From the IMG/VR virus record IMGVR_UViG_3300045988_154803: a stretch of 48,828 nt of DNA; one strand, written 5' to 3'. This DNA comes from a virus (Duplodnaviria; Heunggongvirae; Uroviricota; Caudoviricetes). The notes beneath the pieces were generated by a model. It was given only the letters and a program-made list of their open reading frames with translations, was not told where the DNA came from and did not search any database. Shown piece after piece: positions 52 to 48,828 of the stretch; within the stretch, counting starts at the first letter, position 1, and each line of letters opens with the position of its first letter. The translations under genes and the position numbers were made by a program.

Positions 52-109
52 ATATAATTCTATGACACTTGCCAGAGAGCATCATGCAATTGGATACCTC
101 CATTGCACT
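52..109. repeat. Terminal overlap: identical to 48771-48828 (circular contig closure)
   Basis: Direct comparison of the first post-adapter 58 bases with the last 58 bases of the window. Confidence 0.9.
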
Positions 110-647
110 GGTTGCCCCAGCCATGCCAGCCATCAGGTAAATCACCGCGAGCAAACAGCTCAATACGAGGAACATCACCTAACAGCCTTACCAGCTTGTC
201 ACGGACCACATCAGGCTTCCGAGAATGCTCCAGACGAGGCGATGTAAACGACTGAATGATCCCCGCATCAAGACGTGTCGGTAGTTTGCCTTTCACTGCA
301 AACAAGCAATCTTCACTGTTTGCACGAGTCATATGCCCCATCCCCATCACCAGCTTATCTGGTTGTCGGCTACCACATTTGTTCCATGTGAAGCCCTTCA
401 TGGTCATCAGCCTGAATCCCCATGCTTTCACCACCAGCAACGCTTCTTCTGGCTGAGTCGGAACCCACCACATGGCCAACAAACACGATTCAGGATTAGC
501 AAGCTGCCAGACAGGAATACGAGCAATCTCCTCAGCTTTCATCGTTGGATACTTAAAACCAGCGCCACGATTCCCATCCTTACACTTGTCTTTGTATTCC
601 CAGGGGGGATCTGCATAAATCAGATTAAACAATGCAATTGCCTCCAT
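60..647 (-). CDS. MT-A70 family (Dam-like) N6-adenine DNA methyltransferase
   Basis: 195 aa; catalytic DPPW motif in context LIYADPPWEY typical of MT-A70-type adenine methyltransferases. Confidence 0.65.
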   Translation of the reverse strand: MEAIALFNLIYADPPWEYKDKCKDGNRGAGFKYPTMKAEEIARIPVWQLANPESCLLAMWWVPTQPEEALLVVKAWGFRLMTMKGFTWNKCGSRQPDKLVMGMGHMTRANSEDCLFAVKGKLPTRLDAGIIQSFTSPRLEHSRKPDVVRDKLVRLLGDVPRIELFARGDLPDGWHGWGNQCNGGIQLHDALWQVS

Positions 648-955: not shown

Positions 956-1031
956 TGGTGGCCCCTACCGGATTTGAACCGATGACCGTGCGATTATGAG
1001 TCGCCTGCTCTAACCACTGAGCTAAGGGGCC
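956..1031 (-). tRNA. tRNA with CAU anticodon, ileX/ileY-like (probable tRNA-Ile2 reading AUA after lysidine modification; tRNA-Met not excluded)
   Basis: 76-nt cloverleaf read by hand: acceptor GGCCCCU/AGGGGCC, D arm GCUC-AGUGGUU-AGAGC, anticodon loop CUCAUAA, T arm AUCGG-UUCAAAU-CCGGU, 3' CCA; 5' half matches E. coli ileX as recalled. Confidence 0.85.
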
Positions 1032-2142: not shown

Positions 2143-2461
2143 GATTAAATCCTAATGCGTCAACTATCCGCGCCAGATTGCCCCTGAAATACAGAACAAC
2201 GATGCAGATAATCAGATTTCCAATAACCACCAGCCAGTGGGATTCTTGATAAAGACCGAACACATAACGGAAGGGAACATTGGCGTATACAATGACGTAG
2301 ATATAAGCCAGAAAGGAAACAAATGGACGATGCCTGGAGTCTTTCCGTCGATAAAGCATCAGCGCCATTACTATTACTGTGCAAAGCACCGCATTAATCA
2401 GTGCTGACGGGTCACTGCTTACCATTTGAACCCCCTCCACGTAAGCGGGAAAGCATTCCAA
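2129..2461 (-). CDS. Lysis-associated membrane protein (holin/antiholin candidate)
   Basis: 110 aa, multiple hydrophobic helices; located between holin candidate and endolysin. Confidence 0.4.
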   Translation of the reverse strand: MECFPAYVEGVQMVSSDPSALINAVLCTVIVMALMLYRRKDSRHRPFVSFLAYIYVIVYANVPFRYVFGLYQESHWLVVIGNLIICIVVLYFRGNLARIVDALGFNHDQR

Positions 2462-2807
2462 AGATGCTACCGAGATCCTGGCTGTTTACGAACGTGAGGA
2501 TTTTAATGGTCAATGCAGCCACAATAACCGCACCAAGCGCATCCAGAGGACGATCGTTGTAGCTGGTCCATTTGGCAAGAAATGAGCCAACTAACGGCGC
2601 TCCAATCACTCCAACAATGAACGATGTAAAGAAATAGCCAATCAGCTTGAGACGGCTAATATTCACCGCTGTAGCAACATAGAAAACAGCGCCAGCAAAT
2701 GCCCCGAATACAACGCCGTAATCAATACCAGTTGCAATACCAAAAACGCTGGCACCCATCAGGCCACCAGCAGCAACGGCCGTACCGGAAATTGGTTCTG
2801 CTGACAT
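2412..2807 (-). CDS. Putative holin
   Basis: 131 aa, Gly/Ala-rich predicted TM helices, first gene of lysis cassette. Confidence 0.5.
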   Translation of the reverse strand: MSAEPISGTAVAAGGLMGASVFGIATGIDYGVVFGAFAGAVFYVATAVNISRLKLIGYFFTSFIVGVIGAPLVGSFLAKWTSYNDRPLDALGAVIVAALTIKILTFVNSQDLGSIFGMLSRLRGGGSNGKQ

Positions 2808-2819
2808 TGAAATCCTCGT

Positions 2820-2852
2820 TAAAAAAAAAGCCCCGCCGAAAAAGGCAGGGCT
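2820..2852 (-). terminator. Intrinsic terminator (hairpin plus U9 on minus strand) immediately upstream of holin RBS
   Basis: Minus-strand reading gccctgcc-ttttt-cggcggggc followed by nine T; only ~13 nt before holin start. Confidence 0.65.
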
Positions 2853-3193
2853 TCATAAAGCAACAAATTACGCGGTAATCGCTTAACGCAGTTTTACTAC
2901 GTTAAATGAAACACTACACCCAGTTACCATCTAAAACAAGGTTTTCTCATAAAAAAACCTTCAAATCGTGGTTAATCGATCAATAAAAAAACAATACTCA
3001 ACTTTTTGCCAAACGAACATCCCGGCCAGGACTTCCATAATATTCGCCGATATGCCACTGCTTAAGTTGAGTAATCTTCTCCAACTTAACTCCCATAGAG
3101 TCCAGTTTCTGCCATGTTTTCGGTTGTATGTGCTTCATTATCCGCTCTGAATATCTGAATACTGCTCGTAATCGCATGGCTTCTCACTACAGC

Positions 3194-3637
3194 TTATATA
3201 TGTTCACGACTGGACTTCCAGAATATCCACGCCAGATCAACATTCGGGTCCTGGTAATTCATCCCTTCGTTGGCACGAAGCAATAATGTTTCATGGTCTT
3301 TATCACCCGCATGAAACCTGACAAGTGCTTCGAACTTTTCGCGACCATCATCCGGCACTACCGGCTCTGGTTGGATAGTGACGTTGGCAAAGGCAGCACG
3401 CAAACCGGCCTTAATTTCCTCTACTTCATCAGCGCCTAGCGATGAATCTGACAATGCGTGATGGAATGCGTAAGCCATGTCGTCGTTTACTGCAACCGGC
3501 TCGACTTCCAGCGCTGCCAGAGCAATTCGTGCCAGTTCTTCCGCTTCTTCTGCTGGCAGTACAACGTTGCTACTAGGTCCGTATGTTTCGCGCCACTGCT
3601 TGATTGTCAGTAGTCGCTCTTTGGTAATAGTAATCAT
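3194..3637 (-). CDS. Hypothetical acidic protein
   Basis: 147-aa ORF in early operon; no motif recognised. Confidence 0.45.
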   Translation of the reverse strand: MITITKERLLTIKQWRETYGPSSNVVLPAEEAEELARIALAALEVEPVAVNDDMAYAFHHALSDSSLGADEVEEIKAGLRAAFANVTIQPEPVVPDDGREKFEALVRFHAGDKDHETLLLRANEGMNYQDPNVDLAWIFWKSSREHI

Positions 3638-4331: not shown

Positions 4332-4619
4332 TTACGGTTTTTCATCGTTTGCCCCCTGCTTTTCTGCCCTTAACACCATGCGAGAACCATCATCCAGCTC
4401 CCAATTGATTTCACCGCCTTCTGCCATGACAAGATGCCAAACGAGTTGTGCGGCCTCGTTGGTTACATCACGACCGCGATCATTGCCTACACGGCGTTTT
4501 GTTCCGTCACCTAAATCGCGCATTTTGGCCAACACGATGGTTTTTGATAGCGGTGAAAAACCAAGCTGTAGCCGTGCGGAATTACTCACTGTTTGCCCCC
4601 TGAATACGTTTAAACTCAA
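4332..4619 (-). CDS. Hypothetical protein
   Basis: 95-aa ORF, codirectional in operon. Confidence 0.3.
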   Translation of the reverse strand: MSLNVFRGQTVSNSARLQLGFSPLSKTIVLAKMRDLGDGTKRRVGNDRGRDVTNEAAQLVWHLVMAEGGEINWELDDGSRMVLRAEKQGANDEKP

Positions 4620-5274
4620 TTACCCATACCCACGGGTTAGATAGCCAGTTCTCTTGCCCGTAAATACCGCGCCAGATATCACCAAAACCAACACGATAAA
4701 CAGCTTCCGGCGGCGTAATCTTGTACGTTGCCGGAGATGCGCCTTCCGCTTTGGCATCTGCCTCGCTCATGTCATGCAGCCGCTCCACACGCACGTCGGT
4801 AATTTCCAGCAAAATTCGCGATGCCCATCTCGGCATGTGAATTGACGGGGTCCAGCCCTCAGATGGCTTGCTACTATCTGAGTAATCAGCCTTGTAATCA
4901 CACAGTTCAGAAGCCAGAGAGACACCATCTTTGATTTCCTGAATAACATCGTCATCCAGCCAAAAAGCGTTGAATGTCTCACGTACCCATATGCGATCAC
5001 CAACGTTACCGAACGGGCATAAGCCATGCTCAGGTGCATCCATAACGTGGGTATAGACACCATTGCGTTTCTTTGTCGGTTTACTGATAACCAGGCAGTT
5101 ATCGGCCCTGACATTTTTTACAGGTCGACGAGTCTGCGTCTTCCTGCCTTCGAGGATGGCTCGGACCATCTCATCATTAAAAATCATGCCGCGCTCTTTC
5201 ACCTTGCTCACTTCAACTCCTCCCGACGACGTTCCTGAAGCTCTAGCATTGCAGCTCGGAAATCCTGCCACCAT
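4582..5274 (-). CDS. Hypothetical phage protein (possible ASCH/PUA-like fold); start probably internal at MIFNDEM
   Basis: Motif MIFNDEMVRAILEGRKTQTRR recalled from ASCH-like phage proteins. Confidence 0.45.
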   Translation of the reverse strand: MVAGFPSCNARASGTSSGGVEVSKVKERGMIFNDEMVRAILEGRKTQTRRPVKNVRADNCLVISKPTKKRNGVYTHVMDAPEHGLCPFGNVGDRIWVRETFNAFWLDDDVIQEIKDGVSLASELCDYKADYSDSSKPSEGWTPSIHMPRWASRILLEITDVRVERLHDMSEADAKAEGASPATYKITPPEAVYRVGFGDIWRGIYGQENWLSNPWVWVIEFKRIQGANSE

Positions 5275-9689: not shown

Positions 9690-10346
9690 ATGAAAAGCAA
9701 CGACGAGAACATCAAGAAAGAAATAGGTCTGCGCATTCAGACTCTACGGAAACAATCCGGCATGACTGCCGGAGATCTCCAGCAAGTCACTGGAATAGGC
9801 TTAAGCACCTTGCAGAACTATGAGGCCGGATTAAGACAACCATCTATACCTGCCATCAAGAAAATCGCGCACGCCCTGAAAGCATCAGCGCCTTATATCG
9901 CGTGCTTAACAGATAACCCGTTCCCACCCCAGAATACTAACGCTCCTGTTATTCCTGGGCTTGTAGCTATAAAAAATGACATAGCATCGCACGCCGGAGA
10001 AAAGCCAGTGCTGGCGATAGAACAGGAGATTCTACGAAGCAAGAACATCAACCCATCGTCTCTGTCAGTTCTCCAGAGCAACGATGAGTTAATGTCACCA
10101 ACAATATCCCCAGGCTCCCAAGTCCTGATTAATACAGACGATACAGAGATTCATGAGGGGATCTATGCCCTTGAAGACAGAAATGGCCCGGTTGTTTTGA
10201 GGCACTGTAGAGTCATACCGGGTGACAATGCTGTTATGCTGTCAACCGAAAGGGATGCTGAAATGAACACTAAGCATCTGAATAACGAGGAATTTAAGCG
10301 TTATAAAGTTCTGGGCCGCGTAGTTAGTGTTGTCAACTGGTTATGA
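9690..10346 (+). CDS. CI-like phage repressor (XRE HTH + S24/LexA-like C-terminal domain)
   Basis: N-terminal IGLRIQTLRKQSGMTAGDLQQVTGIGLSTLQNYEAG; C-terminal domain alignable to S24 fold. Confidence 0.8.
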   Translation: MKSNDENIKKEIGLRIQTLRKQSGMTAGDLQQVTGIGLSTLQNYEAGLRQPSIPAIKKIAHALKASAPYIACLTDNPFPPQNTNAPVIPGLVAIKNDIASHAGEKPVLAIEQEILRSKNINPSSLSVLQSNDELMSPTISPGSQVLINTDDTEIHEGIYALEDRNGPVVLRHCRVIPGDNAVMLSTERDAEMNTKHLNNEEFKRYKVLGRVVSVVNWL

Positions 10347-10948: not shown

Positions 10949-11617
10949 ATGGAGTCTCGACAAATGACTATCTCTGTAGGTATTTTCAACGGAAAAGGCG
11001 GCGTAACCAAATCAACAATTGCCCGTGCTTTAGCAGTTGCTTATGCAAAGGCTGGCTGGAATGTATGCCTGATCGATATGGATGTGCTTAACGGAACGGT
11101 AACGCGTTGGGTACAACGCAGAATGGCCAACAATATCGAACCAGCAATCGCGGCGCAGCCGTGCGGCACACCATCACAAGTCCAGAAAATCATCGAATCA
11201 GAAGTATACGACCTGGTTATCGTTGATGGCGGTGCCTACGCATCTGAATCAGTACCGAAGCTCTCTGAATTTCTGGATATGGTTATTTTGCCAACCAGAT
11301 TCTCTACCGATGACCTGGAAACCACCGTTAACACAGCTCACGGCATCGTTAAAAAGGGTGTACCAATCAAGAAAATTTGCATGGTGTTTTCCGGCGCGGC
11401 TGAAAACGAAGCTGACTATATTGAAGCCCAAGAGTACCTGGCTAATACGCCATACTTTGTTGTCGATAAGTACATTCCCCACAAGCCAGCTCTGAGCAAA
11501 GCTCAGGATAAGGGCTTAAGCCTCATTGAGTGCTCATACGTTGCGCCACGCAAAAAGGCAGACGACGTTATTCAGGGGATTATCAACCAGCTTGAGGCTC
11601 TGACTACTGCCGCGTAA
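10949..11617 (+). CDS. parA: ParA-family partition ATPase (small, type Ib-like); likely start at 10964
   Basis: Deviant Walker A GKGGVTKST; ~217 aa without N-terminal HTH. Confidence 0.85.
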   Translation: MESRQMTISVGIFNGKGGVTKSTIARALAVAYAKAGWNVCLIDMDVLNGTVTRWVQRRMANNIEPAIAAQPCGTPSQVQKIIESEVYDLVIVDGGAYASESVPKLSEFLDMVILPTRFSTDDLETTVNTAHGIVKKGVPIKKICMVFSGAAENEADYIEAQEYLANTPYFVVDKYIPHKPALSKAQDKGLSLIECSYVAPRKKADDVIQGIINQLEALTTAA

Positions 11618-11660: not shown

Positions 11661-11909
11661 ATGGCCGCACCATCAAAACCACCAAAGAAGAACAGCAAAG
11701 GCGTACCGCCATCGATCGAACAACCGCAGGTTTTCGACCCGACTGAAACGCCAACCAGAACCAAATCAGGTGGGGCACAAATGGCGTTTAACGTCGACCC
11801 TGAATTTAAACGCGAGTACAAAACGTTCGCCAGCTCAATGGATATGTCATTGAAAGAAGTGCTGACAAAATCTTTTGAGTTACTCAAGGCTCAATACAAC
11901 CAGAAGTAA
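11661..11909 (+). CDS. Small ribbon-helix-helix-like protein, ParG-like centromere-binding partner
   Basis: 82 aa; basic disordered N-terminus then AFNVDPEFKREYKTFASSMDMSLKEVL pattern. Confidence 0.55.
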   Translation: MAAPSKPPKKNSKGVPPSIEQPQVFDPTETPTRTKSGGAQMAFNVDPEFKREYKTFASSMDMSLKEVLTKSFELLKAQYNQK

Positions 11910-11938
11910 GAGAAGGTGACGGCCTCCAGCGCCAACTG

Positions 11939-12121
11939 TTGGCCGTCGCGACACAACAAGGGGAATTTGTTATGTCCGAGCAACAATATACACGGTTACT
12001 AAAAACTCGTCTAATAGACCTCAAACGGCTGCAAGCTGGCCGCTTATTTGCCCTGCTATCCACCAGGCCAGAATGGGTACGTGAAGCAGTTCTGAAAGGC
12101 TTAATGCGCTCCAGCGTTTAA
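11939..12121 (+). CDS. Small hypothetical protein
   Basis: 60-aa ORF following partition genes. Confidence 0.3.
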   Translation: MAVATQQGEFVMSEQQYTRLLKTRLIDLKRLQAGRLFALLSTRPEWVREAVLKGLMRSSV

Positions 12122-12129
12122 ATTCAACC

Positions 12130-12153
12130 ATAAAAAAGCCCCCGAAGGGGCCT
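12130..12153. terminator. Hairpin terminator (U-run on minus strand, A-run on plus)
   Basis: gcccccgaaggggc stem-loop flanked by A6 on plus strand. Confidence 0.5.
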
Positions 12154-12725
12154 AATCGCTACTTGCTGCTAATGTTTATCGTCACATTCAGAGCGTTATC
12201 AGTAATCTTCCAACCCTCCCCATGTGGCGTAAACAAAGCTCCAGTAACAACGATAAAAATACACATACAGTATTTTTTCATTGTATGGCCCTTACAGGCC
12301 GTTTCACGGCATCCCCACCGACGAAAACAACGCGAGAGCAAGCACGGCTGCTTGTGCTTGCATGTACGGCAACGGAGAATCCTCCCCTAAAGTCGGTGCC
12401 CGGGTGCGAATCGGCGGGAAGGTCCACAGGTATTTTACGATTATTTTAAGATTAGTAATAGGAAAGAAATTAAACGAAAAAACTCGTTTATTTTCACAAA
12501 ATCAGTAACCTACCCACAATCTGTGAGTTTGCAGGCACAACAAGAACCACAATTTTTTGAAGCATAATAGTGGACTATTATTACCTTTTGGGTAAAATTA
12601 ACTTGCTGCTTGTGCTTGCGTGGTTGTTTATACAACAACGTAATGCTGAAAGGACCGCGAATCCGATCAGCACGAAAGAACCGTCCTCAATAGGGCGGTT
12701 TTTTTGTTTCTGCCTACCAATAAAC

Positions 12726-12738
12726 CCACGCTATGTGG
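12726..12738. promoter_or_regulatory. Fourth CCAC-N5-GTGG operator-like palindrome
   Basis: CCACGCTATGTGG abutting candidate -35 TTGTCT. Confidence 0.5.
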
Positions 12739-12773
12739 TTGTCTCTGTTAAAATCCCGCCGTATTGACATGAA

Positions 12774-12873
12774 TGCGCCATTGGTGGACACTTTCCGAGC
12801 CGTAGCAAAATCTACGGCCGGGATTGGAACCCCGATAATCATCATGGCGCATACCGCGTTAGCGGTTTTTTTA
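12774..12873 (+). ncRNA. Candidate small RNA (~100 nt) ending at intrinsic terminator
   Basis: Candidate promoter TTGTCT-N17-TATTGA; internal hairpin ccgtagcaaaatctacgg; terminator ccgc-gtta-gcgg + T7 at 12854-12872. Confidence 0.3.
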
Positions 12874-13037
12874 TGCGTAAAGCACTGCTACACCCAAATT
12901 ATGGTGGGGCGTGCGGGGGAGTCGTAAGACTCGCCGGATTCCATGGTGACCGGTAGTTCCAACCCTGTACGTCTCACCACCCAATGATTGGAACCAGACG
13001 GTGGTGAGTATCCTTAACCTTTAAGGGAACTATCACC

Positions 13038-13229
13038 ATGACAAACTTACCCCATGACTATTACGTCAACCTCGTAAAGATCCTTCTCAAGAAAGCCTCA
13101 TACGCCGATAAACTCCGCCTGGCTGAAATCATCGAGCGCGAAGCTATGCGCATCGCCAGCAACGATAACGCTGTTTCTGACGCAAAAATCTCCCTCGTAA
13201 CCAAAGTAGTTATGGGAGGTACAAAATGA
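13038..13229 (+). CDS. Small protein upstream of antirepressor
   Basis: 63-aa ORF with stop/start overlap (ATGA) to antirepressor. Confidence 0.4.
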   Translation: MTNLPHDYYVNLVKILLKKASYADKLRLAEIIEREAMRIASNDNAVSDAKISLVTKVVMGGTK

Positions 13230-18732: not shown

Positions 18733-19713
18733 TTAATGTTGGAGTGATTTCCAGGTCTTTCTTAGCCTGTTATAACGCTGCTCAACGAGGGATCGTAAAT
18801 ATGCAAGGTCAGCACCTGGATACATGCCATCAGCAAATTCCTGGCTAACCTCTCTAGTGATTTGATGACGAAGTTCGGCCTCTCCCTTTTCCTGAACAAG
18901 ACGCGCAGCTCTCTCCGCTGCTTTCTGTTTTGCCTTTATCTCTCTGGCCGTCTTCCTCTGACGCCATACATTCTCCATCTGCTCCTGAATAACAATACGC
19001 TTATAATCAGCCTCCGTTATCGCTTTTTTAAGCCGTTCGCTATTCTTCGCATTGAAGTAATTAAGTTTCTGGCTAACCGCACGTCTCCATGCTTGTTCAG
19101 TAATACCAACGATTTCCAGCAGTTGATCACGAATCTCTATTTTCGCTGGCCAATACTGTTTATTCACCCGATCCCAGCGACGTTCATAATCAATAAAACC
19201 TAACGCTTTCAGTTGCGACAACGCCCTTGTACAGCGCGTTATAGACTTGTTCCCAGCTTCGGATACGGTAGACAGGCCGCAAAAATCAGCCAACGCCTCA
19301 GCACTGGCCAGAACCCGCTTAGAAATGATGTTTACATGGTGCAAAATCGCAGCAATCACAGCATTAATCGCCCGACGACGATGCTCGTTTATCCGGCGTT
19401 TCCGCTCTGACGGTTGATTAACGTAGAACGCAACCTCACACGTAAGATCACGACCATTAATGCGCTGTAAAGCATCAGATAACACCAGCGGCAGCTTGTG
19501 CGTATGGTGCTTTGGAGGCTGGAACTCCGGCGACAAATTACAAACGTAAGCTGAACGTAGAGACGGCATTGGTCTATCCATATGTTCGCTCTTGCGTCCA
19601 CGGAAAACCAACGTATAATGGGAGTTGTCGAGGCGCCCATGGATTGTTTTTGTTGGTTTTCCGTGGATGTCGCAAGAAGCCCGCAGATTTATCTGCGGGC
19701 TTTTTGTTTCCAT
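18733..19713 (-). CDS. repA: IncFII-type RepA replication initiator (RepA1-like); true start possibly internal
   Basis: RRRAINAVI...GLSTVSEAGNKSITRCTRALSQLKALGFIDY aligns by eye to R1/R100 RepA1 block RRRAIDALL...GLATESAAGKLSITRATRALTFLSELGLITY (recalled). Confidence 0.8.
   Translation of the reverse strand: METKSPQINLRASCDIHGKPTKTIHGRLDNSHYTLVFRGRKSEHMDRPMPSLRSAYVCNLSPEFQPPKHHTHKLPLVLSDALQRINGRDLTCEVAFYVNQPSERKRRINEHRRRAINAVIAAILHHVNIISKRVLASAEALADFCGLSTVSEAGNKSITRCTRALSQLKALGFIDYERRWDRVNKQYWPAKIEIRDQLLEIVGITEQAWRRAVSQKLNYFNAKNSERLKKAITEADYKRIVIQEQMENVWRQRKTAREIKAKQKAAERAARLVQEKGEAELRHQITREVSQEFADGMYPGADLAYLRSLVEQRYNRLRKTWKSLQH
19679..19710 (+). terminator. Plus-strand intrinsic terminator antisense to repA 5' region (candidate CopA-like RNA 3' end)
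   Basis: gcccgcag-atttat-ctgcgggc followed by TTTTTGTTT. Confidence 0.4.
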
Positions 19714-40230: not shown

Positions 40231-42087
40231 CTATATGGTTACGCCTTTACTTATAACTCTACGGCGTCTTCTACGTATACCTGACGAGTTCTGCACATAC
40301 ACATTACCTCGCATTTCCTGTTCGGCAAGCCAGTTAAAATTAGGGTTCAGAATTTCCATCGCGGCAGTTGCATAGTTACGGCAATCAAGAGGCTCGTTAC
40401 GCTCGTAGACTTTCACCCACTTTTCTTTTGTCTGCCCATTTTTATATTCAAATATTTTCTTCTCTGATAATAATCCTTTAAAGTATTCGGTATCATATCC
40501 TCTGTCAGAATCTAATGGGAAATGCATATAACCAGGACCAGGATCATGTAGTTTAATTCTTGCCATGATGGTCCCTTTACCATCATCAACCCCCAAATTA
40601 AACAACATAGCACCCACACGGTTATTATTACTTGGCTTTCCTATAAATGGTAAACCTACCCCACCACGCCCCCTGATAGAGTATATTCGCCTTGATTCTC
40701 TCGGCTTAGTAAAGCGATATACCTCTGTCGTAAAATGCCCACCAGAGTCAATACAAACGGAAGAAATCTGTAATTTTCGACCGTCACGGAATGACCAGCT
40801 ACGGAGTAAGTATTCATCAAGTTGTTTCCAGACAACATCTTGTGCGGGATCACCTGGGAATATTTTATATTCTATCCCCCATGACTCCTTACCTTTTCCC
40901 CAACCGACCAATTCACAAACTAAATACGTGTCCTGTACGTCAACACCAGCACTTAACAATAAAACATCATCTGGTAAAAACTCTTCAAACCTTATTCTGC
41001 GTTGCAACAAGTATTCAGGATCGATATCGTCTTTAGCATCCTCTTTCCATGGCTCACCCAGCTTAAGGTTAATAAACTCCATTAATCCATTTTTATCGCG
41101 GTTTCTGGTTGCTTCCGTAAATTCTTCAACCAGCTCTGACAATGCAACCCACGGGGAGTAAAGACTGTTAATATGAAAACCAACAATACCTTTAACTCCA
41201 GTATGTTCAGCTATCCATACCCCCTTCGCCAACCAATCAACGTCTGGTTTACCAGATCCGCGCATAATCCCGCCGCACTCACAGCACTCATATCTGGCCG
41301 TTTCCGGTAACGCCTCACCTGAATCGCTCTTATCCCATCTGACTTGCGACCATTTCATCACCTGCATGGTGCCACAACATGGGCAAGGAACATGGTAGTA
41401 ACGCTGATCGGAGAGCTTAAACCACTTGTGGATTTTGCTCGTTTCCTCCAAAACAGGAGTAGAAACAAAAACTTTCTTACGATTATGAAAGTTGGTAGTA
41501 CGCTGAATACCTAGTTTTAGTGGGTCGCCCTCCTGCGTCACACCGTAACGATCAATCTCATCAGCTAACAGTATTCGAATTGGCCTGGATGCAAGACCTG
41601 CTGGGGAATTAGCACCAACAAGTGCTATATATCCACCAGCGTAATGCTTCATACGTATAGTCGTGCTGGACTTTTTGGCTGCACCGCGCCCCTCTTTCCC
41701 TTCATGCAGCTTGTGTTTCAAACCAGGGGAATATTTGAACGTCGGATCAATACGCTCTTTTGAAAAAGCCTCAGCCGCCTCTACCGTTGGATAAATCATC
41801 AACTGAGGAGATGGCTCCTGATCTGCAAAGTAACCCATAACATTTAGCTGTAATTCGGATTTACCAATTTGCGAGCTACATTGCATCACTACTGTTTCTG
41901 TATCAGCGTCACCAATAACATCCATTGGTTCACGCAAATATGGCACTCGGCTTGTACGCCACGGCCCTGGCTCTGGAGACGTTCCCGGCGCTACATGACG
42001 ATACTTATCAGCCCATTCGGAAACAGTTAGCCGTGATTTAGGGCGAAGCGCACGGAAAAAAGCGGTGCTCCATACTGTTTCGCCCAT
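40231..42087 (-). CDS. Terminase large subunit (lambda gpA-like)
   Basis: 618 aa; N-terminal ...TVSEWADKYRHV resembles gpA ...TAVEWADANYYL; ATPase/nuclease size class. Confidence 0.9.
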   Translation of the reverse strand: MGETVWSTAFFRALRPKSRLTVSEWADKYRHVAPGTSPEPGPWRTSRVPYLREPMDVIGDADTETVVMQCSSQIGKSELQLNVMGYFADQEPSPQLMIYPTVEAAEAFSKERIDPTFKYSPGLKHKLHEGKEGRGAAKKSSTTIRMKHYAGGYIALVGANSPAGLASRPIRILLADEIDRYGVTQEGDPLKLGIQRTTNFHNRKKVFVSTPVLEETSKIHKWFKLSDQRYYHVPCPCCGTMQVMKWSQVRWDKSDSGEALPETARYECCECGGIMRGSGKPDVDWLAKGVWIAEHTGVKGIVGFHINSLYSPWVALSELVEEFTEATRNRDKNGLMEFINLKLGEPWKEDAKDDIDPEYLLQRRIRFEEFLPDDVLLLSAGVDVQDTYLVCELVGWGKGKESWGIEYKIFPGDPAQDVVWKQLDEYLLRSWSFRDGRKLQISSVCIDSGGHFTTEVYRFTKPRESRRIYSIRGRGGVGLPFIGKPSNNNRVGAMLFNLGVDDGKGTIMARIKLHDPGPGYMHFPLDSDRGYDTEYFKGLLSEKKIFEYKNGQTKEKWVKVYERNEPLDCRNYATAAMEILNPNFNWLAEQEMRGNVYVQNSSGIRRRRRRVISKGVTI

Positions 42088-42092
42088 GAGGT

Positions 42093-42653
42093 TTATTCTT
42101 CCTGCTTAATAAATCGGGATTCCTGGAGCGCCTGAAGCGCAAAATTAATCTCGTCTTCAATAATGCGTTCGATCTCCCTGGCTGTTTTGCCTTCACAACG
42201 GGGAGCTGCTCTTGGAGCAATACTAAATAAGCGGCTACGCAATTCATTAGCTGCCAGAAATGCATCATCCCTGACCGCATCTTTAGCGATGAGAGAGCCT
42301 TCCTTTTCTTCAAATTCAAGGCGTTTCAGCTTTGCCTGATAAATTTTTTCTGCGGTCTTAGCCTTGTTGAATTGCACCGCAACACCGGAAGTACCACCAG
42401 CTAATCCGGCATCATCAGCGGGTAACTCTGGTTGTTCCGAAGATATCCCATGCCCTCTTTTTCCATTTTCAGCAGATACCTCACGACCAACCTGTCGGCT
42501 CGCTTCATAAGCCGCACTGGCTTTATCAAAATCCAGCTTGCCGCTTTTCAGCACTGGAATGCGACCGGAACGACAGAGCTTCGTAACCATTGCCGGAGAA
42601 ATACCTTTCCGGCGAGCAAACTCTGACTTACTGACGATGGCCATTACTTGCAA
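42093..42653 (-). CDS. Terminase small subunit (N-terminal HTH)
   Basis: 186 aa; MAIVSKSEFARRKGISPAMVTKLCRSGRI HTH; upstream of large subunit. Confidence 0.6.
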   Translation of the reverse strand: MQVMAIVSKSEFARRKGISPAMVTKLCRSGRIPVLKSGKLDFDKASAAYEASRQVGREVSAENGKRGHGISSEQPELPADDAGLAGGTSGVAVQFNKAKTAEKIYQAKLKRLEFEEKEGSLIAKDAVRDDAFLAANELRSRLFSIAPRAAPRCEGKTAREIERIIEDEINFALQALQESRFIKQEE

Positions 42654-43234
42654 CCATTAGCAAGATACTGAACAAATCCCTCATGCGTTTCATGCGCGTC
42701 GTGGTACTGACGATAAACATCCAGCAACAATGCAATTTCCATATCCGTCGCGGGAATACGTTCTTTATCAATAGCCAGGTACTTAATTTGAACAACAGGG
42801 GAAGAATTATCGTCTTCTTCCTGCGGCTGTTCATCGCTTAACATTTCGTCAAGCTCTGCATCATTAAACCCAAGCAGATCAATATCAAAATCATCATCCA
42901 TTAACTCTTTGACTTCTTCGGCCAGAAGCTGCATATCCCAGCCAGCATTTAAGGCCAGCTTGTTATCTGCAATCCTGTAAGCCTTCTTCTGTTTTTCAGA
43001 AAGGTTACTCAACCGAATCGCCGGAACTTTATCCATTTCCAGAATTTCGGCTGCTGCAAGCCGACCATGCCCCGCAATCAGTTCATTCTTTTCATCGATC
43101 AGCACAGGATTAGTGAAACCGAACTCACGGATACTGTTCACCAACTGTTCAACCTGCTCATCTGAATGAGTCCGTGAATTTTTGGCGTATCTGAGCAGCT
43201 TACCGACTGGTAAATATTCGATTTTTAGAGCCAT
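42644..43234 (-). CDS. ParB-like nuclease domain protein (paralog 1)
   Basis: ParB/Srx N-domain: ...TNPVLIDEKNELIAGHGRLAAA...; paralogous to 45901-46524. Confidence 0.8.
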   Translation of the reverse strand: MALKIEYLPVGKLLRYAKNSRTHSDEQVEQLVNSIREFGFTNPVLIDEKNELIAGHGRLAAAEILEMDKVPAIRLSNLSEKQKKAYRIADNKLALNAGWDMQLLAEEVKELMDDDFDIDLLGFNDAELDEMLSDEQPQEEDDNSSPVVQIKYLAIDKERIPATDMEIALLLDVYRQYHDAHETHEGFVQYLANGCK

Positions 43235-43791
43235 TTTTTAACCGCCATAACACAACAGGTTAAAGAAAACTGTTTAACTTATTGATACTAAAAGAGAAAA
43301 ATGACGATCTTTTTACTCATAAAAAATCACACAAACCAGCATAATCATCTGATTTTATTAAGTTTTTATAAGTAAAAAGGATCTTGAGATGGTGTTTTGG
43401 TTAAAATATTGGATGTATTTGCATGATTTATAACGATTTTTATCAGAACAACATCACATTGGTTAAAGATCTGCGCGTATCTTGATGATCTAAAAGAAAA
43501 TTTTCTACTTTCTTTTTACCAGCACAAATACAGCAAAAAATCACGTTTTCCCGATATTTTTCAATGAGATGAGTAAATTTCTTTTACCGCAACTTTTAAC
43601 CTAACTTTTTTCACGTTTAGCTAGCCGAACATCGGGGTTCGAATGACCCGCATCCAACGCTTTTGGCCAGAAGGACCCAATTCTGCCGGACGATGAAACG
43701 ATGCTCGTGCTCCCCCACAGACAGCCAGCGAGCGACGCTACAGAACACAGTGAATACACTCTGCATAACAACACCATCAACCACACGATGA
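43235..43791. promoter_or_regulatory. AT-rich 557-bp non-coding region upstream of packaging operon (candidate late promoter and/or cos site)
   Basis: No credible ORF; AT-rich with homopolymer runs; lambda-type terminase implies a cos site nearby. Confidence 0.3.
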
Positions 43792-44511
43792 TTAACGAGA
43801 GAAGGTCTTAGAAAGAATGTCATCAATAGCCTTTGTGACTTCATCAGCAAACGCATCCTCACCAGCACGCAGCGCCACGCCATGCCAATCAAGACGCTGC
43901 GAATAGTTAGGTTGCTGGATAAACGTAAGGATCAACGTAGGACGCCGCCCAACGCGCTGCCAGACGCCTGGTTGAAGCGGGTTACTTGTACCAGGTCGAA
44001 CAACAAAAAACTCCGTAGGCTTGCCCTGACGGCGATTTTGATGCGCATCTCGCTGAACTCTTAGGCCAGATAAGACCTGCTGTAATTGCCCCCGCGAAAT
44101 ATTCCCGTATTTGTCCAGCTTTGCGCCGGGACCAGGAGCAAGCTGCCAGCCGTTAGGCAAATATCCACCAGCCCTTAGCGCCCCTTCTGAGCGTTTGTAC
44201 TGTCGTTGGCCACCTTCGATTTGCGGAGTCAACGTTACAGGGGCTGGCGTTCCTCCCCATTCACGAGCATACACAATGGCTGTAGGATCACTCTTCTTTG
44301 CGGCCAAAACGTAAGTAGAGTTCTGAATCCACGGCGTGGGCCTGTCAAATACCCGATTAATTTCATTCTTAATCGCAGCCTGAGAAGCCTTTGCCGTTCT
44401 GGTTGCCGCAAGCGCCATTGCGAACGGCAATTCGCGTTCTTCAAGGCGCTGGAGTTGTCGTTGAATATCCTGAGAAGAAAAATCCATCTTTATCTCAATT
44501 CTGTCAGCCAC
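43792..44511 (-). CDS. Hypothetical protein
   Basis: 239-aa ORF between methyltransferase fusion and non-coding region. Confidence 0.45.
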   Translation of the reverse strand: MADRIEIKMDFSSQDIQRQLQRLEERELPFAMALAATRTAKASQAAIKNEINRVFDRPTPWIQNSTYVLAAKKSDPTAIVYAREWGGTPAPVTLTPQIEGGQRQYKRSEGALRAGGYLPNGWQLAPGPGAKLDKYGNISRGQLQQVLSGLRVQRDAHQNRRQGKPTEFFVVRPGTSNPLQPGVWQRVGRRPTLILTFIQQPNYSQRLDWHGVALRAGEDAFADEVTKAIDDILSKTFSR

Positions 44512-44527
44512 CAGCGCCTCCTACACA

Positions 44528-45907
44528 CTACTTAATCAACGGCCGGAAAGCCGCCAGCACATCATCAGATCGTCCGATTGTTGAACCACCAGGCAACGGC
44601 AACTCAAACTCAAAACGAACAGCTTTCTCCAGACTCGCCCAACTAAGGGAATCATCGTTAATGACGTGCAAATACCAGCTCTTACAGTTGAATATTGACC
44701 GCTTAATCCTGAAACCATGTACACGACACAACTGCTTCACTTCATCATCAGAGTGAAACTTCTGGTAAAACCAGTGCCCCTTCCGGTACAACGCGGTAAA
44801 ACCGTTATGATCAATAAAATAAAGCCGGCTTTTGGAACTCGCCGCTTGTGTTTGCTTCAGGACTGTTTCCAGCTCTCCACGGCTACGACCAGAAAAGAAT
44901 ATTGACCCACCAGCTTTACACAGGCCTTTTAGAACCGTCAGAACGGACCATTCAGCCTCGACACTATCGACCGAGTTCAAAACGCTATCGCAAATCACGT
45001 AGTCGTAACGCCCTCGCGTTTTTAAGTCGTCCACCAGCGTATCAATCATCCGGTTTGTTGCGGCCCTATCCAGAGTGTTTCCAGCGCCCTTACGGCGGAA
45101 AAGCTCGAGATCATGCAGGTTATATCCCTTTGCCCTGAGCATTCGCGCGTAGTCTCCCTGCCCCGAACCAAAATCAATTCCTCTTGGCGTCTTGGCAATG
45201 ATCGGGAGGATCAACGACTCATACAGATTTGATTTCAGGCTGCCACCATTACGCAACCGCATAAGCTGCGCATACGTCTGGATGTATGTTGTTTTCTCCA
45301 GATGAGAATACTCAAATACACCATAAGTTTTATTCAGATAACTTTGGTATTTTTCCTTCTCAACATCAGGGATCACAAACACCGTTAGCGGTGTGCGCGT
45401 CATTTTCGCTGCTAATGCATACTGAGCACAGTGAATAACCTCACCAGACTGAGTAGCAACACAACCACCCCACGGACCATACTTGATAACCAGTTCCGCT
45501 ATGTTCTTTCGAACATATGCCATTTTCGCGCGCATATTGCCTGAGATCTGGCTTGCCGATACCTGAACAAAACCATGCTTATCTTCCAGACCGGACACCC
45601 TGCAACGCTCATCTCCGCTATCAAAATCCGTTCCGTTATGCAGTTGGTTAAACCGTACTTCGTCGTATACCGTCGTTTCACAGGGCAACACATACACCGC
45701 AGCACGCGTTATTCCCAACTTACGTAGCGCCTTCGTCCTTTGGTGTCCCGCCACCAGCAAATCGCCGCGCACTATCAATGGCTTCACAAGCCCCAGCTCC
45801 CTGACGCTTTCCGCCAGCCTCGCAAGATCATCCTCACCGATAAAACGCGGGTTATATTCCGCGCCGCGTAGGTGCGTTATGTCGTAATTGAGGTGAAGCA
45901 TCAGCAC
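44528..45907 (-). CDS. ParB N-domain fused to class I SAM-dependent methyltransferase
   Basis: N-terminal ...LVKPLIVRGDLLVAGHQRTKA (ParB-like); C-terminal GIDFGSGQGDYARML ... DYVICDSVL (Rossmann motif I/post-I); no DPPY/W motif. Confidence 0.65.
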   Translation of the reverse strand: MLMLHLNYDITHLRGAEYNPRFIGEDDLARLAESVRELGLVKPLIVRGDLLVAGHQRTKALRKLGITRAAVYVLPCETTVYDEVRFNQLHNGTDFDSGDERCRVSGLEDKHGFVQVSASQISGNMRAKMAYVRKNIAELVIKYGPWGGCVATQSGEVIHCAQYALAAKMTRTPLTVFVIPDVEKEKYQSYLNKTYGVFEYSHLEKTTYIQTYAQLMRLRNGGSLKSNLYESLILPIIAKTPRGIDFGSGQGDYARMLRAKGYNLHDLELFRRKGAGNTLDRAATNRMIDTLVDDLKTRGRYDYVICDSVLNSVDSVEAEWSVLTVLKGLCKAGGSIFFSGRSRGELETVLKQTQAASSKSRLYFIDHNGFTALYRKGHWFYQKFHSDDEVKQLCRVHGFRIKRSIFNCKSWYLHVINDDSLSWASLEKAVRFEFELPLPGGSTIGRSDDVLAAFRPLIK

Positions 45908-46524
45908 ACCTCCCCAGCCAGCAATGCGGATACAAATCCGATATAGCTGCCATTATCATCAACATAACGAGACACCGCGCAGTCAAAACGATCCGCTTCC
46001 TCATCCGTTGCCGGGATTTTATGACCTCCAAATGACAGGTACTGAACTTTTACGCCTGATTTGGCCTCATCCTTCTCAAATGGGATATCCATACCCTCTG
46101 TGTCATCGTAGACCGCCGCACTCAATAAGTTATCCAGTTCGCGCTGAGTAAAACCAATTGAGTCCAGAGCAAAATCATCGGCCGCAAGATCTGCAAGCTC
46201 CGCGCTTAACAGCTCTTCATCCCAACCAGCATTCAGCGGAATACGGTTGTCGGCCAGACGATATGCCTTCTTCTGATTCTCCGTTAGCCCTTCCAGAACA
46301 ATGCAGGGAACATCATCCATCCCCAACTGAGTGGCCGCAGCAATTCGACCATGACCAGCAATTACAACGTTGTTCTCGTCTATCAGGATCGGATTAGTCC
46401 ATCCGTACTCCTGTATGCTGGCAACAATCTGATCTACCTGCTCCACGGAGTGTGTGCGAGCGTTCTTTTCATAACCAATCAACACAGAAAGTGGTAAAGA
46501 AACCACATTAAGATGTTTTGTCAT
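45901..46524 (-). CDS. ParB-like nuclease domain protein (paralog 2)
   Basis: ...TNPILIDENNVVIAGHGRIAAA...; overlaps start of fusion gene (coupled). Confidence 0.8.
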   Translation of the reverse strand: MTKHLNVVSLPLSVLIGYEKNARTHSVEQVDQIVASIQEYGWTNPILIDENNVVIAGHGRIAAATQLGMDDVPCIVLEGLTENQKKAYRLADNRIPLNAGWDEELLSAELADLAADDFALDSIGFTQRELDNLLSAAVYDDTEGMDIPFEKDEAKSGVKVQYLSFGGHKIPATDEEADRFDCAVSRYVDDNGSYIGFVSALLAGEVC

Positions 46525-46669
46525 GCCGTTTATCCGCTAAAATCCCCTCGCTTGTGCAAGCAAGTGGGCCTCGGTTTGTATCCACGGCACCCTGTGGGTA
46601 TGAATGACTGTCGTCAGGTCGCAACTGACGGCGGTCGCCCACCTTCCAGTAATAAAAAAGCCACCAGCA

Positions 46670-46695
46670 TTAACTCCACAGCGAGCTGGAGTTAA
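46670..46695. repeat. Perfect 9-bp-stem hairpin in intergenic region
   Basis: ttaactcca-cagcgagc-tggagttaa. Confidence 0.6.
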
Positions 46696-46766
46696 TGAGG
46701 CAGCTTTGGTTTGCGCATTATCGCAGCCCCTGGTAAGCACAAGAGCTGCTGTAATGCTAAAAAAAC

Positions 46767-46788
46767 AAAACCACCCGCAGGTGGTTTT
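46767..46788. terminator. Bidirectional intrinsic terminator
   Basis: aaaccacc-cgca-ggtggttt with T-runs on both strands. Confidence 0.6.
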
Positions 46789-46816
46789 ATAAATAAATAG
46801 CAAACAGGTATCTGCA

Positions 46817-48666: not shown

Positions 48667-48785
48667 CGGGTTATCTCCGGTTTAACCAGGGCGGGTATCG
48701 CTCGGTTCCGGGTATAACCTTAGGAAATTTTTTCCCACCTGTAAAGTACTTTTTATATAAATATATAATTATATAATTCTATGAC
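48667..48785 (-). promoter_or_regulatory. Conserved promoter/5' leader cassette, copy C
   Basis: Near-identical to copies A and B; palindrome TATATAATTATATA at 48762-48775. Confidence 0.6.
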
Positions 48786-48828
48786 ACTTGCCAGAGAGCA
48801 TCATGCAATTGGATACCTCCATTGCACT
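48771..48828. repeat. Terminal overlap identical to 52-109
   Basis: Direct comparison. Confidence 0.9.

Follow-up and report, generated by a model that had tools for sequence, protein, structure and literature searches.

A ParB-like protein paired with a ParB-methyltransferase fusion beside the packaging genes of a phage-plasmid

Overview of the locus

The IMG/VR record IMGVR_UViG_3300045988_154803, a circular assembly of 48,828 nucleotides (nt) referred to below in its whole length as the window, carries near its terminase genes a gene for a 207 amino acid (aa) ParB-like protein, ParB-207, and, overlapping it, a gene for a 457-aa protein in which a ParB-like N-domain is fused to a class I S-adenosylmethionine (SAM) methyltransferase domain (the fusion). 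A second stand-alone ParB-like protein, ParB-196, is encoded nearer to the terminase genes, beyond the gene of a 239-aa protein (p239) and a putative cos site. We consider it moderately probable that ParB-207 and the fusion make up a late-expressed, ParB-assisted methyltransferase cassette of the ParB-terminase large subunit (ParB-Tls) type, which would act on the phage DNA before or during packaging. Both the ParB-Tls locus type and the ParB + Methyltransf_23 fusion architecture have been published, and the locus is a good example of a described type, not a discovery; what is new here is the near-obligate pairing of a separate ParB with the fusion, the DNA-modifying partners of this ParB subfamily, the reassignment of p239, the position of the putative cos and the separability of two modules within the region.

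Conserved pairing and the partners of related ParB proteins

Among 80 IMG/VR loci encoding the fusion, the fusion gene was immediately preceded, on its own strand, by an open reading frame (ORF) for a ParB-like protein of about 200 aa, which usually overlaps its start; the exceptions were four loci in which the contig end cuts the fusion ORF (L036, L046, L055 and L073) and one further locus, L053. With about 75 of the 80 loci showing it, the pairing of ParB with the fusion is near-obligate, and the metagenomic and genomic contexts of the fusion agree. When these loci were reduced to a non-redundant set of 42, the fusion was commonly followed, as the first large ORF downstream, by a match to one of four terminase groups of Pfam: Terminase_6N (14 loci), GpA (10), Terminase_3 (nine) and TerL_ATPase (three), counts that may overlap between families. 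A minimal form is seen in the Bacteroides phage BS-TP3, which encodes ParB (gp51), the fusion (gp52), TerS (gp53) and TerL (gp54). The p239 gene, a second ParB and the matching TerS co-occur, among the fusion loci, only in the close relatives L014-L021. The fusion family itself comprises >700 clusters, with 45-60% identity from Enterobacterales to Bradyrhizobium, and its hosts are prophages of Enterobacterales, Rhizobiales and Bacteroides; with a family of this size, any activity would matter broadly, in the conflict between phages and their hosts as well as for phage engineering.

The ParB subfamily was also followed in IMG/VR independently of the fusion, using an alignment (A7) narrower than the ParB alignment A5 described below, which was too divergent for the scan. 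Long ORFs made up half of the close relatives of ParB-196 and ParB-207 (50-60% N-domain identity), and all of those tested (40/40) were fusions of ParB with an N6_N4_Mtase domain. The gene that follows the ParB gene, and mostly overlaps it, was recorded for 33 stand-alone relatives; it encoded Mom (10), a TET-associated glycosyltransferase (eight), an N6_N4_Mtase (three), a GNAT protein (three), ABC/AAA ATPases (four), a C5 DNA methylase (one) or a Cox-type small terminase (one). The Mom, TET-associated glycosyltransferase, N6_N4_Mtase, GNAT and C5 methylase partners are DNA base-modifying enzymes or their close kin. The 40 fusions and the 33 neighbours, which we regard as the best evidence on this point, suggest that this subfamily partners DNA base-modifying enzymes in general, and by this association the Methyltransf_23 fusion probably acts on DNA.

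Gene layout

All genes of the locus lie on the minus strand, in the order ParB-207, fusion, p239, cos, ParB-196, TerS, TerL. The features, in window coordinates, are as follows.

46524..45901 (-): ParB-207, 207 aa; matches Pfam ParB_N and phrog_620
45901..44528 (-): ParB-N + class I SAM methyltransferase fusion, 457 aa from the ATG at 45901
45907..44528 (-): the fusion as the mechanically called ORF, 459 aa from a GTG start at 45907
44511..43792 (-): p239, 239 aa; matches PHROG 1924 'minor tail protein'
43791..43235 (-): gap of 557 bp containing no ORF, between p239 and ParB-196
43637..43648 (-): putative cosN; cohesive end of 12 nt, GGTCATTCGAAC, within the conserved near-palindrome GGGGTCATTCGAACCCCG
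43235..43636 (-): AT-rich region from cosN to ParB-196, with TTTAACC/GGTTAAA repeats
43234..42644 (-): ParB-196; matches Pfam ParB_N; first gene after cos
42644..42093 (-): TerS, 183 aa from the ATG at 42644; phrog_57, E 7.4e-42; N-terminal helix-turn-helix (HTH)
42087..40231 (-): TerL of the lambda gpA type; Pfam GpA_ATPase, E 7e-76, and GpA_nuclease, E 1e-84
60..647 (-): MT-A70 family methyltransferase, 195 aa; Pfam MT-A70, E 2.4e-23
46790..46765 (-): terminator-like hairpin from a consensus scan, an 11-pair stem followed by TTTTTTT

An earlier note on this DNA had listed two ParB-like proteins, the fusion, the 239-aa protein and, apart from them, an MT-A70 gene, and all of these were recovered by ORF, Pfam and PHROG analysis, so that its count of at least two distinct methyltransferases (MT-A70 and the fusion) holds. 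Because the window is a circular assembly, the MT-A70 gene falls about 2 kb upstream of ParB-207 on the circular map, an order shared by the related contigs L016-L020. The hairpin sits between a DUF2513 gene and ParB-207 and marks the upstream edge of the ParB-207/fusion/p239 unit. Between the hairpin and ParB-207 there is a GC-rich leader of about 240 nt, and no promoter-like site was found in this region (46525-46816); hairpin and leader together could form a late-regulation element.

The stand-alone ParB-like proteins

ParB-207 and ParB-196 share 48% identity over 201 columns (BLASTP, E 1e-61). They had been described as alignable over about 110 residues, and while their paralogy is borne out, the similarity extends over the full length of both proteins. 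Each matches phrog_620 at about E 1e-74 (2.9e-74 for ParB-207), and Pfam ParB_N was present in ParB-207, ParB-196 and the fusion, with ParB-196 scoring 33.7 bits, above the cut-off. ParB-207 consists of an N-terminal domain of the nucleoside triphosphate-binding type, a helical segment, an acidic linker and a small conserved C-terminal domain. In alignment A5 the N-domain and a C-terminal block are conserved and the acidic linker is variable; the invariant residues of ParB-207 are A5, N21, G57 and R60 (Box II, GHGR) and, in the C-terminal block, E176, G196 and F197, and D92 and N93 are nearly invariant (at least 90%). The C-terminal halves of both proteins gave zero Pfam matches even at E <= 1, and no HTH or ParB C-terminal dimerisation domain of Pfam was found in the ParB-like proteins, these halves at E <= 1 included.

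The stop codon of ParB-207 overlaps the fusion ATG in TGATG, and that of ParB-196 overlaps the TerS ATG in TAATG; ParB-207 is translationally coupled to the fusion, and ParB-196 to TerS. Both contacts had been remarked on before, and the abutment of ParB-196 on the small terminase stands as described. The overlap of ParB-207 with the fusion start was also correctly seen, with the length of 459 aa given for the fusion probably being two residues too long: the most likely start is the ATG at 45901, which is preceded by a GGGGAGG Shine-Dalgarno sequence, forms the TGATG overlap and yields 457 aa, as in deposited records.

The fusion protein

The description of the fusion as a ParB-like N-domain joined to a class I SAM-methyltransferase was upheld by several searches. 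Pfam Methyltransf_23 (PF13489) matched residues 234-400 with 32.7 bits (cut-off 27), and the same domain also matched Methyltransf_11 and Methyltransf_12; ParB_N (PF02195) matched residues 9-70 with 24.3 bits, just under the cut-off of 26.3. PHROG 5475 covered the fusion at positions 1-457 of 458 (E 1.6e-265). A profile built from 43 homologues matched Bacillus subtilis Spo0J (6sdk) at residues 5-82 (E 1.9e-8) and UbiG-type O-methyltransferases at residues 244-354, and Spo0J, ParB and Noc structures were all matched by the family profile. We assign a ParB fold to the N-domain because of the Spo0J profile match and the full-length match to PHROG 5475. The AlphaFold2 model of the fusion had a predicted local distance difference test score (pLDDT) of 93.

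In alignment A1, which contains the 43 fusion homologues and reaches down to 45% identity, G54-H-Q-R57 of Box II (residues 54-60 read GHQRTKA), the SAM motif I D245-F-G-x-G, E268 and D307 are invariant. So is the stretch FNQLHNGTD from F86 to D94, with L89 nearly so. The motif after strand 4 reads D307-S-V-L-N-S-V-D, of which D307-x-V-x-N-S-x-D is invariant. The middle domain (residues 99-232) was considered as a second, degenerate ParB domain and rejected as such, hhalign of the sub-alignments giving a probability of 0.4%.

A probable ParB-assisted modification cassette

According to two later reports (PMC6536676 and PMC4738411), Iyer et al. (2013, NAR 41:7635) predicted that the ParB-Tls locus modifies the DNA of the phage in association with its packaging. 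As outlined there, the locus comprises a ParB-like gene upstream of the terminase in one orientation, with a modifying enzyme between the two or fused to ParB; the present locus likewise has a ParB/Srx N-domain gene upstream of TerL in the same orientation. Measured against that outline, it differs in that its enzyme is not a classical DNA methylase, TET/JBP protein or glycosyltransferase but a generic class I Methyltransf_23 protein, in that this enzyme has a divergent ParB domain of its own besides the separate ParB, and in that two ParB paralogues, a structural gene and cos lie inside the locus. Pfam scans of the window's ORFs, one of them giving the best 25 of 34 families, brought up no TET/JBP family.

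Three other systems resemble parts of the cassette. Fusions of a ParB-CTPase domain with Methyltransf_23 (PF13489) have been reported to be enriched in phages and prophages, and a tested alphaproteobacterial member with the Box II sequence GHQRTKA binds ATP in the DRaCALA assay (Kaljevic et al., PNAS 2025, PMC12704722 and supplement). These proteins share with the fusion the domain architecture, the phage enrichment and an identical Box II at residues 54-60, whereas the survey does not include an upstream ParB partner, a position beside the terminase or a substrate. Secondly, a thymine dioxygenase acts on double-stranded DNA (dsDNA) only in the presence of its cognate phage ParB, a stand-alone protein that has no DNA-binding domain (O'Toole et al., PNAS 2026, PMC13229309). 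By its described layout, this protein, ParB176, resembles the stand-alone ParBs here in its nucleotide-binding N-domain, short helical segment, long linker and small C-terminal domain, and no DNA-binding domain was recognised in ParB-207 either; ParB176 is encoded beside its cognate DNA-modifying enzyme, as ParB-207 is beside the fusion. The enzyme of ParB176, 5mYOX176, is, however, an iron- and 2-oxoglutarate-dependent (Fe/2OG) thymine dioxygenase, while the partner here is a SAM methyltransferase fusion. Thirdly, our stand-alone ParBs strongly match the N-terminal 150 aa of phage ParB + N6_N4 fusions (phrog_498, E 1e-51; the Paracoccus prophage methyltransferases of PMC6536676 are of this kind), which occupy an identical position upstream of the terminase; in those proteins ParB is fused to a genuine DPPY amino-methyltransferase, whereas here it is a separate polypeptide accompanying a methyltransferase of another class.

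Taken along these lines, ParB-207, a small ParB/Srx-fold protein without HTH, would be made in step with the coupled 457-aa enzyme. The ParB-fold N-domain of the fusion may serve as a nucleotide-binding switch, in keeping with the ATP binding seen for the homologue with GHQRTKA, and its C-terminal class I SAM methyltransferase domain would do the chemistry. ParB-207 may act as the cognate loader or activator, probably through a nucleotide-gated engagement of the two ParB N-domains, which would keep the methyltransferase bound to phage dsDNA once this has been replicated. Methylation would follow just ahead of, or during, packaging by the terminase, and the marked DNA could gain an anti-restriction benefit, being shielded from host nucleases in the next cell. 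ParB-196 would be a diverged duplicate residing in the packaging module, where it may link a similar activity to the terminase/cos complex, and p239 would be a virion neck component without a part in modification. If the fusion does methylate DNA, it would represent a class outside the families used to predict phage methylomes, and its dependence on a separate ParB would extend the principle of ParB as an activator from dioxygenases to methyltransferases.

Several observations weigh against this reading. By both sequence and fold, the closest solved relatives of the fusion are UbiG, Trm9, glycine N-methyltransferase and natural-product methyltransferases, and its top 50 fold neighbours, generic class I enzymes that methylate small molecules, tRNA or proteins, do not include a DNA methyltransferase. 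Neither a (D/N/S)PP(Y/F/W) motif nor a conserved PC motif was present in its sequence and alignment A1, and no match to N6_N4_Mtase, MethyltransfD12, N6_Mtase, MT-A70 or DNA_methylase of Pfam was found in it at E <= 0.01. The middle domain (about residues 99-232) had no Pfam match of any kind at E <= 1, and a DNA-binding domain was recognised in neither ParB-207 nor the fusion. A Brochothrix homologue (27% identity) has no partner ParB and does not adjoin a terminase, only seven cultured-phage records carry the fusion, and a literature search turned up no paper characterising this phage or the fusion family. Since the fusion lacks DNA-methylase motifs, it is from context that we infer a DNA substrate, namely from the partners of related ParBs. 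The proposal of the earlier note, that DNA modification here is linked to packaging, is accordingly sustained in part: the match to the ParB-Tls type, as far as the later reports describe it, and the comparative partner data favour it, while the fusion does not bear the signature of a DNA methyltransferase.

The main alternative, to which we give a minor though real chance, is that the fusion methylates something other than DNA, such as a protein (terminase, portal, capsid or a host defence factor), RNA, or a small molecule or nucleotide, and that the ParB-fold domains are ATP-binding regulatory modules only. The matches to Methyltransf_23, 11 and 12 and to UbiG-like O-methyltransferases, the fold neighbours just listed (Trm9 being a tRNA enzyme) and the missing DNA-methylase motif IV are all what such an enzyme would show, and the ParB/Srx fold also occurs in non-DNA enzymes, for example SerK and sulfiredoxin (PMC12704722). 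This alternative would, however, leave the fusion strictly coupled to a ParB subfamily that otherwise partners DNA base-modifying enzymes, and in a place just before the terminase that is kept across four terminase families and three bacterial phyla; in addition, published surveys class the fusion as a predicted DNA methyltransferase.

Within the preferred reading of a cassette acting on phage DNA, a bolder version, which we think unlikely, is that ParB-207 and the fusion form an ATP-gated heteromeric DNA clamp carrying a methyltransferase of neither the DPPY nor the C5 type, which would leave a DNA mark other than N6-methyladenine (6mA), N4-methylcytosine (4mC) or 5-methylcytosine (5mC). Were this true, the fusion would found a biochemically new class of DNA methyltransferase that is common among the prophages of Proteobacteria and Bacteroidota, and its mark would lie outside what current methylome pipelines look for.

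The p239-cos-terminase module

The region had been taken for a single DNA-modification cluster that included the 239-aa protein. We found instead that it is composed of two separable modules, the ParB-207 + fusion cassette and a p239-cos-ParB-196-TerS-TerL module, because the related contigs L096 and L097 (TerL 88-91% identical) keep p239, the gap, ParB-196, TerS and TerL and lack ParB-207 and the fusion. The two ParB genes of the window are thus parted by a structural gene and a probable cos. In L096, the p239 gene is separated from the cos/ParB-196 region by the insertion of a 389-aa ORF on the opposite strand (2253-3422, minus strand), which may be a mobile element or moron.

p239 matched PHROG 1924 'minor tail protein' (E 2.5e-97), with no match in Pfam or NCBIfam and nothing below E 1 in a Foldseek search of the PDB. 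Its model (pLDDT 86) has a beta-rich core, like that of HK97 gp10, flanked on either side by long terminal helices. Distant homologues (30-40% identity) lie directly upstream of Nu1/TerS and a gpA-type TerL in phages with no ParB or methyltransferase nearby. p239 is therefore, as its model and company suggest, a probable virion neck or head-tail protein travelling with the cos/gpA packaging module, and not a part of the cassette as had been supposed. Its likeness to the HK97 gp10 family is confined to the gp10-like fold of the model; p239 differs in being twice as long, with long N- and C-terminal helices and no Pfam match, and in the location of its gene, which directly precedes cos at the genome's far end and is not among the head-tail joining genes. 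In L009, L010, L011, L096 and L097, a neck-protein-like gene is the last before cos, Nu1 and the gpA terminase, far from the head-tail joining genes.

The position of cos was deduced from two circular records of Yersinia phages, vB_YpM_39 and vB_YpM_44, which are >99% identical to the window. The first record starts at window position 43648 and the second at 43636, exactly 12 nt apart, and both starts fall inside GGGGTCATTCGAACCCCG, the best-conserved block of the intergenic alignment A4. Because the records break 12 nt apart in this conserved block, and the terminase is of the gpA type, we infer a lambda-like 12-nt cohesive end GGTCATTCGAAC at 43637-43648. With cos so placed, ParB-207, the fusion and p239 would lie at the right end of the virion DNA, and ParB-196, TerS and TerL at the left end. 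A literature search on vB_YpM_39, vB_YpM_41 and vB_YpM_44 brought up no paper describing them; a paper on HQ103 was considered and set aside, HQ103 being an unrelated 32-kb phage.

Between the putative cosN and ParB-196, the motif TTTAACC is concentrated, five of its 13 matches in the window lying between 43237 and 43601, and six TTGTTAACC repeats occupy the matching place beside cos in the related phage L021. The TTTAACC/GGTTAAA repeats are candidate cosB-like sites for the small terminase. About 85 nt of this AT-rich region (window 43421-43505), present in vB_YpM_39, are missing from vB_YpM_44, and this stretch is therefore dispensable. A sigma-70 scan detected no promoter in the gap from cos to ParB-196. 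TerS, in addition to its phrog_57 match, showed weak matches to Cox-like and AbiEi HTH families.

The placement of ParB-196 raises a further explanation, in which the ParB-like proteins, and mostly ParB-196, are packaging accessory factors or nucleases aiding the recognition or cutting of cos, with the methyltransferase being secondary. ParB-196 is the first gene after the putative cos and overlaps the start of TerS, the ParB-196-TerS-TerL arrangement persists without the fusion in L096-L098, and the deposited annotation of phage 613R2 labels the fusion 'nuclease'. We nevertheless judge this explanation improbable, since only one of the 33 related stand-alone ParBs has a Cox-type small-terminase-like neighbour and most precede DNA-modifying enzymes, and since no nuclease catalytic motif was identified. 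Terminases of the gpA type moreover cut cos on their own, as in lambda.

The phage-plasmid

The element is a phage-plasmid. We base this on an IncFII RepA gene (18733-19713, minus strand; Pfam E 4e-44), a gene for a ParA-like ATPase of 222 aa (10949-11617, plus strand), the lack of any tyrosine integrase found in the window, and the presence of the region, at 99% identity, in 62 circular PLSDB plasmids of 46-52 kb, including one of 48 kb in Escherichia coli ATCC 25922, a standard laboratory strain (NZ_CP009073.1). The parA gene is followed by an 82-aa ORF (11661-11909, plus strand), which is placed and sized like a ParG-like partner although it matched no family. A CI-like repressor is encoded at 9690-10346 (plus strand).

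The phage-plasmid features would also fit a role of the ParB-like proteins as centromere-binding partition proteins of a plasmid-prophage, as the GenBank annotation of phage 613R2 has it, but this role is very improbable and was largely rejected: TIGR00180 scores of 31.0, 16.4 and 40.1 bits are far below the cut-off of 58.45, the HTH and ParB C-terminal dimerisation domains are missing and no ParA-binding LG[KR]GL motif could be read in the sequences, the sole ParA-like gene (of type Ib size) is 31 kb away on the other strand with a downstream ORF of its own, the ParB genes belong to a late operon, and homologous pairs occur in chromosomal prophages and integrase-bearing phages.

Downstream of parA and the 82-aa ORF, a segment of about 1.1 kb (11910-13040) contains no convincing ORF on either strand and is a possible place for a centromere, an origin or an RNA gene. 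A pooled family scan of the region at about 19.9-24.8 kb revealed a serine recombinase (Resolvase + HTH_7) and two tail-fibre assembly genes of the lambda gpK type, adjoining a 772-aa tail-fibre gene and a plus-strand 278-aa ORF; judged from these genes, the region resembles a Mu/P1-type host-range switch with invertible tail-fibre genes.

Other features of the window

The first 51 nt of the window are Illumina Nextera adapter (AGATCTACAC-CTATTAAG-TCGTCGGCAGCGTCAGATGTGTATAAGAGACAG), and nt 52-109 duplicate its last 58 nt (48771-48828), giving a true length of about 48.7 kb. A tRNA-Met (CAT) was located at 956-1031 (minus strand), between the lysis genes and MT-A70 and within a mechanically called 99-aa ORF (858-1157). 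In addition, a 230-aa protein (4582-5274, minus strand; phrog_874) showed a weak match to the ASCH domain (E 0.008, below the cut-off), a domain proposed to act as a reader of modified nucleic acids.

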